Source of the DNA: Escherichia phage 235Ecol030PP
Sequence record: PP355091.1
DNA length: 64,000 bases
Reading direction: 5' to 3' (one strand)
Position numbers and translations under genes: made by a program. This document shows, piece after piece, positions 33,323 through 40,645 of this stretch. The notes under the pieces are model-generated. The model saw only the letters and a list, made by a program, of their open reading frames with translations. It was not told the origin of the DNA and did not search any database. Position 1 is the first letter of the stretch. Each line of letters opens with the position of its first letter.

Positions 33323-33825
33323 TTAAAAGTATTTTTTAAAACTCATCATAACTTTATCATCAACATCATTATCAATCTGTGCAACAAGATAAGATGACAG
33401 TTCTACTTCTTGCGGCGCGGATTGAACATTATCAGAATTAAGATATTCACGAATCCAAGGATATGGATGTTTAACCGGAGCATCAGTAATTGGGCATGGA
33501 AGACCGCACTGTTTCATACGAGATACAGTTAAGTAATCAATAAAGCTCCACATGCTATTTGTATTTAATCCAGGAACATCGCCATCTTTAAATAAATGAA
33601 CTGCCCAATCTTTTTCTTGGCGGTTAACTTCCATGAAAATATCAACTGCTTCTTGTTCACACTCTTGAGCAATTTTAACCCATTCATCGCCATCAGTGCC
33701 AAGTTGAAGTTGACGAATAATATATTGAGTGCCTTTAAGGTGAAGCTGCTCATCACGTGCAATGAACTTCATAATTTTGGCATTACCTTCCATGATTTCC
33801 ATGTTCTTATGGAAGTTAAAGGTAC
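33323..33825 (-). CDS. nrdB: Ribonucleotide reductase small subunit NrdB, exon 2
   Basis: Continues the exon 1 frame: ...SFA-C-TFNFHKNMEIMEGNAK...; Cys codon split t|gt across the intron. Confidence 0.85.
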
Positions 33826-34914
33826 CGTATGTTCGATTGAGCTCGCTAATTCTCAACCCGTTCTCTTATGAACTGCTACATATTACTATGCAGACCAGAC
33901 TATATCACAATCCCAGAGGGATTCTCCCCATTTCGAGTCGCTTGACCCTACGTCCGAAGACTAGTCGTTGAACCTTGCTTTGCAATTGTCGCCGTGCCAT
34001 CGTTTATATGTTGATGGTGATAAATCTTTCTTATCACAATATGGACAATTCAATTGAATTCTATTTGGATTTAATTTACATCTGTCATTATGTTTTAGAT
34101 AAAATCCAGGACCTTTACCAATGTGACCGCAGAAATCACATGTGATTTCTTTTTGTGCAGGATGGGTCCCGTTCTTAACCATTTCTAATGTTTTTGCTGA
34201 TGTTCTTTTCTTATGGTCTTCTGACAAGAAATGATGCGAACCGTCATTTACCCGTTTTGATTGAGTTTCTGACTGCATTTTACCACCGCAAAATACATGA
34301 GTACCTTCTTTTATAGCTGCAATATTGCGTTCTTTAACTTTTGCAATATGCTCAGCTTGTTGAAAATTATGTATACCTAATGCAACTCTATTTAAATTAG
34401 ATTTACGCTGTATTTCACCGTCTAAAAGATGAAATGTACCATTTTCTATCTTAGATTTAATAGAGGCAATATTTTTAGCTCGTACTTCAGGAATATTAAA
34501 AATCTGGATTTCTCTAGATTTTGCGGCTTTAGAAGCTAATTCAGAAATTTCTTCAGGAGAATATTTCATTCTAAGCTTTATAGCATGACAAGCCTGGTAA
34601 TCTTTTTGAGCTAAATGTATATCATAATGTTCCTGTATAGAAAGGCACATCAAATTATCTAAATCATTATTTTCACGGTTACCGTCTTTATGATGGATTT
34701 CGTATGTTCTTCCATCAGAATCTTTAGGTATAGGTCCGTTAGCATCTATCCAAATTTTTCTATAGTTCAATTGTGCATCCTCTTAAAAGTATAATCATAT
34801 TCATATTATACTAATTAAAGGTGCAAGCAAAACCTTGGCTGCTAGTTTTCCATAAAGGACTTTCCAGCAATTAAAGGAGTTTTCGATAAACGTTACCGTT
34901 TAAAGGCGCATTTT
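33826..34914 (-). mobile_element. Group I intron in nrdB (1089 nt) with homing endonuclease ORF
   Basis: Interrupts conserved NrdB frame; 5' exon ends in U, intron ends in G; size fits a full-length version of the T4 nrdB intron. Confidence 0.8.
33961..34770 (-). CDS. Intron-encoded HNH homing endonuclease (I-TevIII-like), TTG start
   Basis: 269 aa; HNH motif EIHHKDGNRENNDLDNLMCLSIQEH; C-terminal Cys-rich zinc finger; AAGAGGA Shine-Dalgarno 8 nt before TTG. Confidence 0.85.
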   Translation of the reverse strand: MNYRKIWIDANGPIPKDSDGRTYEIHHKDGNRENNDLDNLMCLSIQEHYDIHLAQKDYQACHAIKLRMKYSPEEISELASKAAKSREIQIFNIPEVRAKNIASIKSKIENGTFHLLDGEIQRKSNLNRVALGIHNFQQAEHIAKVKERNIAAIKEGTHVFCGGKMQSETQSKRVNDGSHHFLSEDHKKRTSAKTLEMVKNGTHPAQKEITCDFCGHIGKGPGFYLKHNDRCKLNPNRIQLNCPYCDKKDLSPSTYKRWHGDNCKARFND

Positions 34915-35590
34915 ACGCAAAAGATACATAAAAACGAATAGCTTCCAATGCGTTGATTACATGAAGGCAAAGATAAAGAGATTTCATTAGTGCTCGTTTA
35001 GCTTCGGCTTCTTGTTTAATAGCTCGGTTTAAACGAAAGACGGCATCAGGAGATTCTTTAGCTAATTCTACAAATTCTTTAGCATTTTCCCATTCACGGG
35101 TCTTCTTAAGAACATCATCATAATAGCGACCGATAGATTCAGCACGTTTCATGATAGCTTCATCTAATACAATCTCATCAAATACCTTAGCAGGGTCATT
35201 GAACAAGTTACGCATGATATGGGTATATGAACGACTGTGAATAGTTTCGCTAAAAGTCCATGTTGCTACCCATGTATCAAGGCTTGGATCTGAAATCAAT
35301 GGCATAAGCACAGCAGACGGTGCACGCCCCTGGATGGAGTCTAACAATGACTGGTATTTTAAGTTATTGATAAATATAGATTTTTGATGTTCTGGGAGCT
35401 TATTAAACTGTGCAGCATCCATCATCAAGTTTACTTCTTCCGGACGCCAGAAAAATGAGAGCGAACGTTCAATAAGTTCTTCAAATACCTTATGTCGTTG
35501 AATATCATAACGTGCAATTCCAAGACCTGAACCGAAGAACATAGGTTCTGTTAAAACATCAACTGGATTTGTATTAAAAACTGTGCTCAT
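34915..35590 (-). CDS. nrdB: Ribonucleotide reductase small subunit NrdB, exon 1
   Basis: MSTVFNTNPVDVL...LEAIRFYVSFA; ferritin-like diiron motifs. Confidence 0.85.
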
Positions 35591-35641
35591 AATTTTTCCT
35601 CTTAGTTAATAGATAGTGACTCGTCCATGAGTCAAATTATA

Positions 35642-37906
35642 TCATAATTTACAGGATGAACAATCTTCAGCTTTTGGAGTTTCTATTTCATAATCATCAG
35701 TACCAGAACCATCACGGGTATTATGATAATAGAAATTTTTAATGCCATAATACCATCCGTATAGCATGTCATCAATCATTATTGACATTGGAACCTTGCC
35801 TTTAGGGAAGATTTGGGGGTCATAGTATGTATTCGCTGAAGCTGATTGACATACCCATTTCAGCATAATAGCTACCTGCGTAAGATAAGGTTTATTACCT
35901 TTCTTAGCTAATTTCCACGTATAATCATATAGGTCTATGTTATGCTCAATATTGGGCACGACTTGATTAAAGGAGCCCTCTTTTGATTCTTTAACAGAGA
36001 CTGGTCCACGTGGAGGCTCGATACCGTTTGTACTGTTAGAAACTTGGGAAGATGACTCACATGGCATAAGTGCTGATAATGTGCTATTACGGATGCCAAA
36101 GAGCTTAAGGTCTTCCCGCAGCGCCGACCAGTCACAAACGTATTTTGGAGCTGCGATTTGGTCAATCTTTTTATTGTACCAGTCGATAGGTAATTCGCCT
36201 CGAGACCAACGAGTGTCTGAATAATATTCGCAAGGTCCTTTTTCTTTGGCGAGCTTAATGGATGCTTTAATGAGTCCATACTGTAATCTCTCAAATAGTT
36301 CATGTGTTAAATCGTTAGCATCTTCATAAGAAGCAAAGTTACTTGCCAGCCAAGCCGCATAGTTGGTAACACCTACACCGAGGTTACGACGCTTTTTAGC
36401 TTTTTCTGCTTCAGGAACTGGATATCCTTGGTAATCCAAAAGATTATCAAGAGCACGAACTTGAACTTCTGCCAATTCATTAATTTTATCTTGGTCTTGC
36501 CAGTCAAAATTGTCTAATACGAAGGCAGAGAGAGTACAGAGCCCAATTTCAGCATCAGGGCTATTCACATCATTTGTTGGAATAGCAATTTCACAACACA
36601 AGTTACTCTGGCGAATAGGCGCCTTTTCACGAATAAACGGAGTATAGTTATTCGTATTATCAATGAACTGCACATAAATCCTTGCTGTTCCTGAGCGTTC
36701 AGTCATGAGCAATTCAAATAGTTCACGGGCTTTAATACGCTTTTTACGAATATTAGGGTCTTTTTCTGCTGCTTCGTATAATTCACGGAAACGGTCTTGG
36801 TCTTTAAAATAAGAATAATAAAGCTCGCCACTCATTTCATGCGGACTGAACAAAGTAATGTAATCGTTCTTTCCGAATCGTTCCATCATCAAATCATTCA
36901 GCTGAACACCATAATCCATATGACGAATGCGGTTTTCTTCTACGCCTTTGTTATTTTTCAAAACGAGAAGATTTTCAACTTCCAAATGCCAAATAGGATA
37001 ATAAGCAGTAGCAGCGCCGCCACGAATTCCACCCTGTGAGCATGATTTAACTGCAGTCTGAAAATGTTTCCAAAAAGGAATAACACCGGTATGACGCACT
37101 TCACCCATGCCAATCTTAGAACCTTCGGCACGAATCATACCTACGTTAATTCCAATTCCAGCGCGTTTAGAGATATATTCAACAATTGAAGCGGAAGCCT
37201 TATTGATAGACTTCAATGAATCTCCTGCCTCAATAACAACACATGAACTAAACTGTCGAGTCGGAGTACGGCAACCAGCCATAATAGGAGTTGGCAATGA
37301 AATCTGTCGAGTAGATACTGCTTCATAAAAACGAATAACATGTTTTAATCTATCAACAGGTTCATCTTGATGCAATGCCATTCCAATAGTCATAAATGCA
37401 AACTGTGGAGTTTCATAAATTTGACCAGTGGTTTTATCTTTAACTAAATATTTTTCTTTTAATTGCATCGCCCCGGAATAAGTAAATTCCATATCCCGTT
37501 CGTGCTTAATTTTTGATTCTAAAAATGTAATTTCTTCTGCTGAATATTTTGACAATAATTCAGGGTCATATTTACCTTCATTTACACAGTAAGAAATATG
37601 GTCAATAAATGAACGTGGTTCATACTGCCCATAAACATGCTTACGAAGAGCGAACATTAAACAGCGTGCAGCTACATATTGATAATCAGGCTCTTCAACC
37701 GAAATAGAATTCGCAGCGGCCTTAATGACAATAGTCTGAATATCATCAGTTGTCATTCCATCACGGAGATAAGATTTAATATTTTCATATAATTCATAAG
37801 GATCTACTGATGTTCCTTCAGCTGCCCAAGATAAAACTTTAATAATTTTTTGTGGGTCAAAGCTCTGAGAAACACCACTACTTTTGATAACATTAATTAA
37901 TTGCAT
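35642..37906 (-). CDS. nrdA: Ribonucleotide reductase large subunit NrdA
   Basis: 754 aa, T4 length. Confidence 0.92.
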   Translation of the reverse strand: MQLINVIKSSGVSQSFDPQKIIKVLSWAAEGTSVDPYELYENIKSYLRDGMTTDDIQTIVIKAAANSISVEEPDYQYVAARCLMFALRKHVYGQYEPRSFIDHISYCVNEGKYDPELLSKYSAEEITFLESKIKHERDMEFTYSGAMQLKEKYLVKDKTTGQIYETPQFAFMTIGMALHQDEPVDRLKHVIRFYEAVSTRQISLPTPIMAGCRTPTRQFSSCVVIEAGDSLKSINKASASIVEYISKRAGIGINVGMIRAEGSKIGMGEVRHTGVIPFWKHFQTAVKSCSQGGIRGGAATAYYPIWHLEVENLLVLKNNKGVEENRIRHMDYGVQLNDLMMERFGKNDYITLFSPHEMSGELYYSYFKDQDRFRELYEAAEKDPNIRKKRIKARELFELLMTERSGTARIYVQFIDNTNNYTPFIREKAPIRQSNLCCEIAIPTNDVNSPDAEIGLCTLSAFVLDNFDWQDQDKINELAEVQVRALDNLLDYQGYPVPEAEKAKKRRNLGVGVTNYAAWLASNFASYEDANDLTHELFERLQYGLIKASIKLAKEKGPCEYYSDTRWSRGELPIDWYNKKIDQIAAPKYVCDWSALREDLKLFGIRNSTLSALMPCESSSQVSNSTNGIEPPRGPVSVKESKEGSFNQVVPNIEHNIDLYDYTWKLAKKGNKPYLTQVAIMLKWVCQSASANTYYDPQIFPKGKVPMSIMIDDMLYGWYYGIKNFYYHNTRDGSGTDDYEIETPKAEDCSSCKL

Positions 37907-38223: not shown

Positions 38224-38440
38224 ATTGTTTTTCCGTTAAAACAGTAATATCGTAGTAACAGTCAGAAGAAGTTTTAACTGTGGAAATTTTATTATCAAAA
38301 TACTCACGAGTCATTTTATGAGTATAATATTTTTTGCCATAAATGATAATAGGCTGATTTGGTCCTGGAACTTCTAACTCGCTTGGGTTAGGAAGTGTAA
38401 AAAGAACGGCACCAGAAGTATCTTTAAATCGTAAAATCAT
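38177..38440 (-). CDS. Hypothetical protein (position of T4 nrdA.2)
   Basis: 87 aa. Confidence 0.45.
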
Positions 38441-38748
38441 ATTGCCATTTTCCCTTTAATTGCTGGATGCGATTCATAATTTTCAAGGATAAAATCTTTC
38501 GGTTTCATGTATTCAGTTAACCAGTAAAGCTGTGTTTCGGTGTCACAATTTCCAAACTCTATAGGCCAATCAATTTTAAGTTCACACAGTTCTTTAGGCT
38601 CACGACGTAAAATTTCTTTACATTGTTCTACGTGATTCATATAGATATGAGTATTACCACCGGAAAATATCAAATCTCCCGGAATAAGATTACACATCTT
38701 AGCTACAATATGAACTAACGTAGCATATGATGCAATATTAAATGGAAG
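38437..38748 (-). CDS. td: Thymidylate synthase, exon 2
   Basis: Begins [19 protein letters not shown]..., continuing the exon 1 frame after ...DVFLG. Confidence 0.88.
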
Positions 38749-39067
38749 CATTATGTTCAGATAAGGTCGTTAATCTTACCCCGGAATTATATCCAGCTGC
38801 ATGTCACCATGCAGATCAGACTATATCTTCAACTTGTTAAAGCAAGTTGTCTATCGTTTCGAGTCACTTGACCCTACTCCCCAAAGGGATAGTCGTTAGG
38901 CATTTATGTAGAACCAATTCCATTATCAGATTTTACACGGTAAGTAACTAATCCTGATGAAATTATTAAAGGGTAGTCCTACAATTTAGCACGGGATTGT
39001 CTACTAGAGAGGTTCCCCGTTTAGATAGATTACAAGTATAAGTCACCTTATACTCAGGCCTCAATTA
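38749..39067 (-). ncRNA. Group I self-splicing intron in td, ORF-less (319 nt)
   Basis: - strand begins UAAUUGAGGCCUGAGUAUAAGGUGACUUAUACUUGUAAUCUAUCUAAACGGGGAACC, matching the T4 td intron 5' end from memory; ends AUAAUG; no ORF. Confidence 0.85.
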
Positions 39068-39615
39068 ACCCAAGAAAACATCTACTGATCGTTGATACCA
39101 CTGCAAATCCAAATAACCATTACGCACATTAAACTGATAGAACATATGACAAGGTGGTAATGCCATATATTTAAGTTCAGCTGGATTCCACGCAGAAACA
39201 ATTTGACGCCTATCATTTGGCAGTTTTTTAATACGATCAATAACTTCTATAATTTGATCTACACCACCAAAATCACGCCACTGTTTTCCATAAATTGGAC
39301 CAAGTTCACCGCTATGGTATCCTAAATCTTTTGCTTGATTTTCGTAATTTTCATCCCAAACTGTTTTGCCTTGGATTAACGAATCATGTTGAATTAATCG
39401 CAAATCATTGACATTTGTGCTTCCCGATAAAAACCAAAGCAGCTCAGCAATGCAAGCTTTCCAGGCGAGCTTCTTAGTTGTTACTGCAGGAAAACCTTTA
39501 GTTAAATCCCAGCGTAATTTAGTACCGAACAAAGCAATTGTTCCTGTGCCTGTTCGGTCATCGGTTTCGTAGCCATTTTCCAGGATATCTTTAATTAAAA
39601 ATTGGTATTGTTTCA

Positions 39616-39616
<1 letters not shown>
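39068..39616 (-). CDS. td: Thymidylate synthase, exon 1
   Basis: From ATG 39616 (MKQYQ...); exons total 286 aa as in T4 TS. Confidence 0.88.

Positions 39617-40645
<1,029 letters not shown>

Follow-up and report, generated by a model that had tools for sequence, protein, structure and literature searches.

The group I intron in the thymidylate synthase gene (td) of phage T4 is a textbook group I intron of a bacterial virus. It is 1016 nt long and carries the gene for the homing endonuclease I-TevI at intron nt 132-869, in agreement with the length of about 1 kb and the I-TevI gene ascribed to it in a preliminary description of the locus studied here. A non-essential loop accommodates most of the I-TevI open reading frame (ORF) (PMC2988022). 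The overlap with the ribozyme is confined to the final 20 nt of the ORF (PMC3073962), which contribute to P6a, P6, and P7 (PMC3073962; PMC2988022). I-TevI recognises the junction of the intron-less td gene and cuts approximately 23-25 nt upstream, starting gene conversion, and its mistimed translation has been reported to impair splicing (PMC2988022). According to a summary of the homing-endonuclease cycle, the endonuclease gene degenerates after the intron becomes common (PMC5009752). Truncated endonuclease genes have already been described in introns of T4-type phages, in T4 nrdB and in gene 43 of phage JSE (PMC2993671), and defunct T-even introns can be carried by a nearby or co-infecting endonuclease (PMC2790892).

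The td locus and its neighborhood

We analyzed a window of 64,000 nt (the whole stretch of DNA under study) from Escherichia phage 235Ecol030PP, a T4-like phage (Tequatrovirus) whose best 24-kb database matches are about 96% identical, with no identical record. On the minus strand, the td frame reads ...GATGTTTTCTTGGGT up to an intervening sequence that runs from TAATTGAGGCCTGAGTATAAGGTGACTTATACTTGTAATCTATCTAAACGGGGAACC to CTGAACATAATG, and it resumes with CTTCCATTTAATATTGCA. The end of exon 1 (GAT GTT TTC TTG GGT) is followed by TAA, and exon 2 starts with CTT CCA TTT AAT ATT GCA (LPFNIA...). The preliminary description had the frame split after ...DVFLG and resuming at LPFNIASYA 319 nt later, which is exact, and it also gave the first bases of the intervening sequence and its terminal G correctly. 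The parts of the gene are as follows.

39068..39616, minus strand: td exon 1, 549 nt, codons 1-183, ending ...DVFLG; the 5' strand of P1 is UUGGGU, the final six bases of the exon (39068..39073)
39065..39628, minus strand: ORF in the frame of exon 1, whose stop UAA is formed by intron bases 1-3
38749..39067, minus strand: td intron of the T4 group I type with the I-TevI gene deleted, 319 nt, last base G, assigned by Rfam RF00028, alignment to T4, and 72/72 canonical pairs
38437..38748, minus strand: td exon 2, 312 nt with the stop codon counted; a 3-bp P10 can form between CUU at its start and GAG at intron nt 8-6

When joined, exons 1 and 2 encode an uninterrupted thymidylate synthase of 286 aa, with no frameshift or stop in either exon. 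At residues 61-240 the joined protein does not differ from the T4 thymidylate synthase, and divergence is found mainly in the last ~46 residues. The flanks of the insertion site, GTTTTCTTGGGT upstream and CTNCC downstream, are identical in the window and in T4 td.

The genes around td follow the T4 order: frd (39819..40400), a 68-aa ORF, td, nrdA.2 (DUF5496), nrdA.1 (DUF4326), nrdA (35642..37906), and nrdB. The 68-aa ORF (39616..39822, minus strand), which overlaps both frd and td at its start and stop, belongs to phrog_9550 and has no Pfam match; it is also present in phage C2-3, whereas frd and td are directly adjacent in T4. No nuclease gene adjoins td in the window, the small ORFs at this place being DUF5496, DUF4326, phrog_9550, and dihydrofolate reductase (frd), and the nearest endonuclease gene lies in the nrdB intron, approximately 4 kb away.

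The nrdB gene is also split, by a second group I intron at about 33826..34914 (minus strand, ~1089 nt), which starts with AAAATGCGCC after ...TTTGCGT and ends with ...GAACATACG before GTACC.

34913..35590, minus strand: ORF of nrdB exon 1
33961..34770, minus strand: intact I-TevIII-like HNH endonuclease of 269 aa (phrog_12324, E = 1.9e-193; Pfam HNH_3)
33323..33856, minus strand: ORF of nrdB exon 2

A full-length form of I-TevIII is reported for phage RB3 (PMC1865063), and the nrdB intron of the window carries this full-length, RB3-type I-TevIII, in contrast to the truncated copy of T4. Thus one window holds a td intron without its endonuclease gene and an nrdB intron with it. The free-standing endonuclease gene mobE, located between nrdA and nrdB in T4, is absent, and nrdB exon 1 directly follows nrdA (35590..35642).

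The ribozyme and its predicted structure

The whole 64 kb was scanned with Rfam at gathering thresholds, which for Intron_gpI is a score of 50. The td intron matched RF00028 (Intron_gpI) at 38797..39077 on the minus strand with 73.8 bits (E = 7.7e-17), covering positions 1-253 of the 253 in the model without truncation. This match is far beyond chance, because the score is well above the gathering score, the model is matched in full and untruncated, and no other gathering-level match occurs in the 64 kb. The nrdB intron was missed at the gathering threshold and gave 33.9 bits at 33876..34116 in a permissive scan. The preliminary description had proposed this covariance-model check of P1-P9 and had named the absence of a group I structure as the outcome that would speak against an intron; the search found the structure, and the pairs of P1-P9 can all be formed.

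To describe the structure explicitly, the T4 td model was written onto the window, with helices P1, P2, P3, P4, P5, P6, P7, P7.1, P7.2, P8, P9, P9.1, P9.2, and P10. All 72 of the 72 pairs in P1-P10 are G-C, A-U, or G-U. The two retained parts of the intron and its internal guide sequence are distributed as follows.

38965..39067, minus strand: 5' retained block, intron nt 1-103, corresponding to T4 nt 1-103, with the 3' strand of P1, P2, the 5' strand of P3, P4, P5, and the 5' strands of P6 and P6a
39054..39059, minus strand: internal guide sequence GCCUGA, intron nt 9-14, which pairs with UUGGGU of exon 1 as P1
38749..38911, minus strand: 3' ribozyme half, intron nt 157-319, with the 3' strands of P6a and P6, P7, P7.1, P7.2, the 3' strand of P3, P8, the 3' strand of P7, P9, P9.1, P9.2, and the terminal G

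The helices of the core consist entirely of standard pairs (P3, 6 bp; P4, 6; P5, 3; P6, 2; P7, 5; P8, 7), including the P3/P7 pseudoknot with the guanosine-binding site. P1 places a U.G wobble, U(-1) with G9, at the 5' splice site, and its 6 pairs form in 100% of cells across 10 homologues; at the 3' splice site the intron ends ...AUAAUG, with the terminal G at window position 38749. Two mismatches to T4 are found in the 3' ribozyme half, both in joining regions: the change GAAGAUAUAGUC (also written GUUGAAGAUAUAG) goes towards the Rfam consensus, and the change GUCUGAUCUG keeps a consensus-matching residue at a variable position.

The same pairing was assessed in an alignment of ten distinct td introns from Tequatrovirus, Karamvirus, Gelderlandvirus, and a Klebsiella phage, with the P6a loop left out. 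In this alignment 99.6% of the cells pair, and sliding the 3' partners by 1-3 columns lowers this to 30-46%. Both partners have changed in a compensatory way in P7.2 (U-A to C-G), at two pairs of P9.2, and at the third pair of P10. The minimum-energy fold of the whole intron recovers P2, P3, P4, P5, P6/P6a, P7.1, P7.2, P8, P9, and P9.1; since the P7 pseudoknot is beyond the reach of such a fold, and its z-score reached only -2.6, we relied on the covariance model and the explicit pair counts. On this model the td ribozyme is predicted to be intact, with every helix formable.

The third pair of P10, between window position 38746 (base +3 of exon 2) and 39062 (intron nt 6), covaries among td introns. 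It is G.U in the window, U-A in four phages, and A-U in CF-SP2, and a G.A mismatch in T4 and F1. Therefore, some natural td alleles would have a P10 of 3 bp, compared to 2 bp in T4, for which a third pair is expected to bring a gain (PMC8554844).

The I-TevI deletion and its distribution among phages

Alignment to the 1016-nt T4 intron, which had been suggested for placing the missing I-TevI ORF, showed that T4 intron nt 104-799 (696 nt) are absent from the window and that the gap lies within the P6a loop. Intron nt 1-103 correspond to T4 nt 1-103 with 1 mismatch, G94A (102/103), in accordance with the T4-like 5' end noted earlier. For intron nt 104-319 the counterpart is T4 nt 800-1016, with 210/215 matches, 5 mismatches, and a single 1-nt gap, which falls at T4 position 840. 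Over the 318 aligned nt, this amounts to 6 substitutions and 1 gap. The preliminary claim of a group I intron homologous to that of T4 td, at the same site and without I-TevI, is borne out by this alignment, by the Rfam match, and by the absence of any coding-strand ORF of at least 35 aa within the intron.

38964..38965, minus strand: deletion junction, T4 nt 104-799 missing between these bases
38896..38964, minus strand: 3' remnant of I-TevI, with the last base of codon 223, codons I224-A245 (22 codons), and the stop

The junction reads CCCTTTAATAA followed by TTTCATCAGG, and the corresponding T4 flanks are TTTAATAA before ATAC and TTTTAAAA before TTTC. It has an exact microhomology of 2 nt (AA) inside an imperfect 8-nt repeat (TTTAATAA / TTTTAAAA), an arrangement that reads as the signature of an illegitimate deletion. 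Because I-TevI occupies T4 nt 132-869, the deletion took 28 nt upstream of its ATG, including the AAGAGG ribosome-binding site, together with codons 1-223. Accordingly, the GIY-YIG and zinc-finger parts of I-TevI are absent, as are residues 1-223. The remnant reads ISSGLVTYRVKSD, then NGIGST*, has neither a start codon nor a ribosome-binding site, and is out of frame because of a 1-nt deletion in an A run that is private to the window. The Pfam DNA-binding domain of I-TevI (I-TevI_DNA-bd, PF20987) corresponds to residues 192-242 of the T4 protein, and the retained codons cover its C-terminal 20 residues, or two-fifths. Since the ribozyme uses only the last 20 nt of the I-TevI ORF, ~49 nt of the coding remnant lie outside the core. 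The 5' retained block also keeps 10-14 nt of the loop upstream of the former I-TevI gene (CCCUUUAAUAA). The td intron is still active when opened or circularly permuted in the ORF region of P6a, so the P6a loop from which the segment was deleted is dispensable (PMC8554844).

Several statements of the preliminary description need to be modified on this evidence. It had left only the ribozyme core in place, and approximately 60 nt of sequence derived from I-TevI and the upstream loop are kept. As an origin it had offered a precise excision of the endonuclease gene; in fact the deletion is imprecise, starting 28 nt before the I-TevI ATG and reaching codon 223. Given the ~49-nt remnant outside the core, neither statement holds.

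BLAST of the 319 nt against 50,697 phage records identified 16 GenBank records (13 isolates) that align in one piece of 320 nt each, with 98.1-99.4% identity. The carriers include C2-3 (vB_EcoM_C2-3), Shinka, 101112UKE3-1, PYps55T, MLP2, UPWr_E2, SYGD1, U115, ESh30, HP3 and its derivatives, L14, Pinarejo, and Elenatom. All 16 records share the junction of the window, because each aligned piece spans the 320 nt whole-length, and the identity of the junction was directly checked for phage C2-3. These phages share with the window the deletion junction and three junction-proximal substitutions, whereas the window differs from all of the 320-nt records in the extra 1-nt deletion and in one T-to-C change in the I-TevI remnant, both outside all helices of the model. 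In GenBank the loci of the 320-nt allele are annotated as just two 'thymidylate synthase' CDSs. The exact deletion junction had no match in IMG/VR viral contigs and JGI metagenome contigs, nor did a relaxed version in IMG/VR; the 320-nt allele is so far observed only in isolate genomes.

The three substitutions, G94A, G806A, and T809A in T4 numbering (intron nt 94, 110, and 113; window 38955..38974), lie within 10 nt of the junction and are common to all inspected carriers of the 320-nt allele. Each turns a G.U or a mismatch into a Watson-Crick pair in a predicted extension of P6a. The predicted energy of the P6a arm is -17.3 kcal/mol when T4 carries the deletion alone, and it falls to -18.2 in the 320-nt allele and to -18.9 in the window; single reversions of the three substitutions change it by at most 0.4 kcal/mol. 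We considered an adaptation of the RNA after the deletion, for which the predicted gain of only ~1 kcal/mol is too small a support, and an origin in a diverged parental I-TevI allele, for which none of the 168 records covering the region has the substitutions (best, 97.0%, 2 mismatches in 66 nt). Error-prone repair at the deletion and relaxed constraint afterwards are equally possible origins.

The last 147 nt of td (38437..38583, minus strand), encoding the C-terminal ~46 aa, match Paracelsus, which has a full-length intron, at 147/147 positions, and F1, which has a 446-nt allele, at 146/147. Compared to C2-3 position by position without gaps, they match at only 68/147, and this variant also differs from T4. 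One td 3' end is thus found with introns of 1016, 446, and 319 nt. Because the short allele occurs on at least two td backgrounds, recombination has shuffled intron and exon variants into a mosaic td.

At least five other independent I-TevI deletion alleles with different junctions were found, and at least 168 records retain the I-TevI 3' region upstream of the junction.

446 nt (F1, FN, G28, 112, FL18): in-frame deletion between two RHFK-coding repeats, leaving a mini-ORF of 55 aa
315 nt (Klebsiella phage EI): deletion between GGAAT repeats
262 nt (215Ecol030PP, PD112, CE1): T4 nt 1-93 and 848-1016 kept
254 nt (CJY920, N2, HMD-9, GRNsp7): 4-bp hairpin in place of P6a, no trace of I-TevI
250 nt (Salmonella phage SEA1): 4-bp hairpin in place of P6a, no trace of I-TevI

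Given these several independent junctions, loss of I-TevI from the td intron is recurrent, and the natural alleles of 250-262 nt mean that the window intron is not 'minimal', as it had been called. The 55-aa ORF of vB_EcoM_F1 (positions 1332-1499 of its locus, L003) joins the first 30 residues of GIY-YIG to the last 25 residues of the DNA-binding domain and is a 'homing endonuclease' in RefSeq. In the compact introns of SEA1 and CJY920, the whole P6a arm is a hairpin, GUUC-GAAA-GAAC or GUUC-UUUU-GAAC; such introns may represent either the original form without an ORF or clean secondary deletions. The td intron of EI, outside Tequatrovirus, keeps the I-TevI start region and the first codons. 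It is labelled 'intron of plasmid pMTL007C-E2' in a GenBank note, after a cloning vector in which the td intron is presumably part of the selection marker.

Origin, mobility, and relation to known systems

Taken together, it is highly probable that the locus carries a td group I intron of the T4 lineage in which a 696-nt deletion in the dispensable P6a loop removed I-TevI, leaving the last 22 codons as a dead scar. A different history would be that the ancestral td intron never had an ORF and that the I-TevI frame was later extended into original intron RNA ('core creep'). In its favor, the original group I introns are believed to have had no ORF, a 20-nt overlap of the I-TevI 3' end with the core is documented (PMC3073962), and compact alleles with a clean 4-bp hairpin for P6a and no I-TevI trace do exist, in SEA1 and CJY920. 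However, the retained block goes ~49 nt past this overlap and codes for residues 224-239 of PF20987, and on the left side the stretch preceding the I-TevI start region of T4 is still there. The junction lies in a short imperfect repeat, as a deletion predicts; other alleles have nested, different junctions, one of them in frame between RHFK-coding repeats; and the 97-99% identity to full-length introns points to nesting within their clade. We therefore give this history very little credence. The endonuclease trace beyond the need of the ribozyme likewise sets the intron apart from a never-invaded one, and with it falls the empty state that the preliminary description had offered as the other possible origin.

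The deletion of I-TevI from a working intron also has to be weighed against a dead intron that no longer splices, in a decaying td gene whose role has passed to the host thyA. The td gene is not essential for growth of T4 on thyA+ hosts, which counts in favor of such decay. Every ribozyme helix can be formed, though, the exons are without frameshift or stop, the protein equals that of T4 over 180 central residues, and the allele was observed in 13 independently isolated viable phages with intact exons, all of which makes a dead intron most improbable. A collapsed full-length intron of 1016 nt, produced by assembly or sequencing, is a still fainter prospect. The 1-nt deletion in the A run, private to the window and seen in no database record, could be a sequencing error, but the junction of the 696-nt deletion is identical in 16 independent records, and no flanking repeat of a length suited to collapse is present, with only 2 nt of exact homology.

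The intron left by the I-TevI deletion most likely self-splices yet would be unable to home alone, judging from its sequence. We infer splicing from the observed identity to T4, the compatible structure, and the intact exons. The td pre-mRNA would fold into a T4-like ribozyme, in which free guanosine would attack after the U of the P1 U.G pair; the second attack, by the freed exon 1, would fall after the terminal G (38749), exon 2 being held in line by P10, and the ligated mRNA would encode the full enzyme of 286 aa. Unspliced RNA would give only the 183-aa fragment, because its stop UAA is intron nt 1-3.

We also infer both the immobility of the intron and its protection from I-TevI. A mobile intron encodes a functional homing endonuclease, and this one encodes none; without I-TevI an intron-less td gene would stay uncut, so no autonomous homing, and instead passive inheritance, is expected. 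Since the intron occupies the insertion site and splits the recognition sequence, the allele should be uncleavable by I-TevI. The shortened intron may still spread or persist by ordinary recombination, or with I-TevI supplied by a co-infecting phage.

A more speculative reading, which we hold to be rather unlikely, is that the loss of I-TevI is not only recurrent but favored, rather than mere neutral decay, and that the endonuclease-free intron is a selected 'vaccinated' state. If so, the lack of translation inside the ribozyme might improve td splicing, given the impairment reported for mistimed I-TevI translation (PMC2988022), and the retained intron would keep the phage immune to I-TevI in co-infection. 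Behind this reading stand at least six deletion junctions in T4-like phages, at least two td backgrounds, and the absence of the three substitutions from 168 I-TevI-bearing alleles.

The td intron of the window is at the stage of the cycle in which the endonuclease gene degenerates after the intron has become common. Such decay inside fixed introns is an expected stage of the life cycle, and since at least a dozen other sequenced phages share the shortened form, it is an ordinary stage in mobile-intron decay. A survey of T-even introns by Sandegren and Sjoberg in 2004 reportedly found inactivating deletions in several intron endonuclease genes. A td intron without its endonuclease is already known in kind, and the same allele is present in public genomes without intron annotation; no published description of the 320-nt allele was found in the literature covered. 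Automatic annotation splits such td genes into two 'thymidylate synthase' CDSs and leaves the intron unmarked, and the Rfam gathering threshold catches the short td intron while missing ORF-bearing ones, such as the nrdB intron. The natural series of 446, 320, 315, 262, 254, and 250 nt is a ready map of the loss tolerated in the P6a loop and could serve to measure the frequency of endonuclease-gene loss in phage introns.

Compared to the td intron of T4, that of the window has the same host gene, insertion site, and splice-site sequences, a ribozyme 97-99% identical, and all of P1-P10. In contrast to T4, which encodes I-TevI, it is without nt 104-799, the segment that holds the I-TevI translation signals and codons 1-223, and its exon 2 starts with CUU instead of CUA, making a third P10 pair possible. 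The nrdB intron of T4, likewise a T-even group I intron, has an internal deletion that disabled I-TevIII while the ribozyme works, and it is immobile alone but can be carried in trans (PMC2790892; PMC2993671); it differs in its gene, in the HNH family of its endonuclease, and in the 97-aa ORF that remains, whereas no translatable ORF remains in the td intron of the window. Engineered td introns with the ORF deleted or P6a permuted serve in vitro, as parts of circular-RNA constructs, and in selection markers; they share this ribozyme, have the contents of the P6a loop removed or the loop opened, and are active in splicing (PMC8554844). Their end points are designed, whereas the intron of the window is a natural deletion with a microhomology junction.
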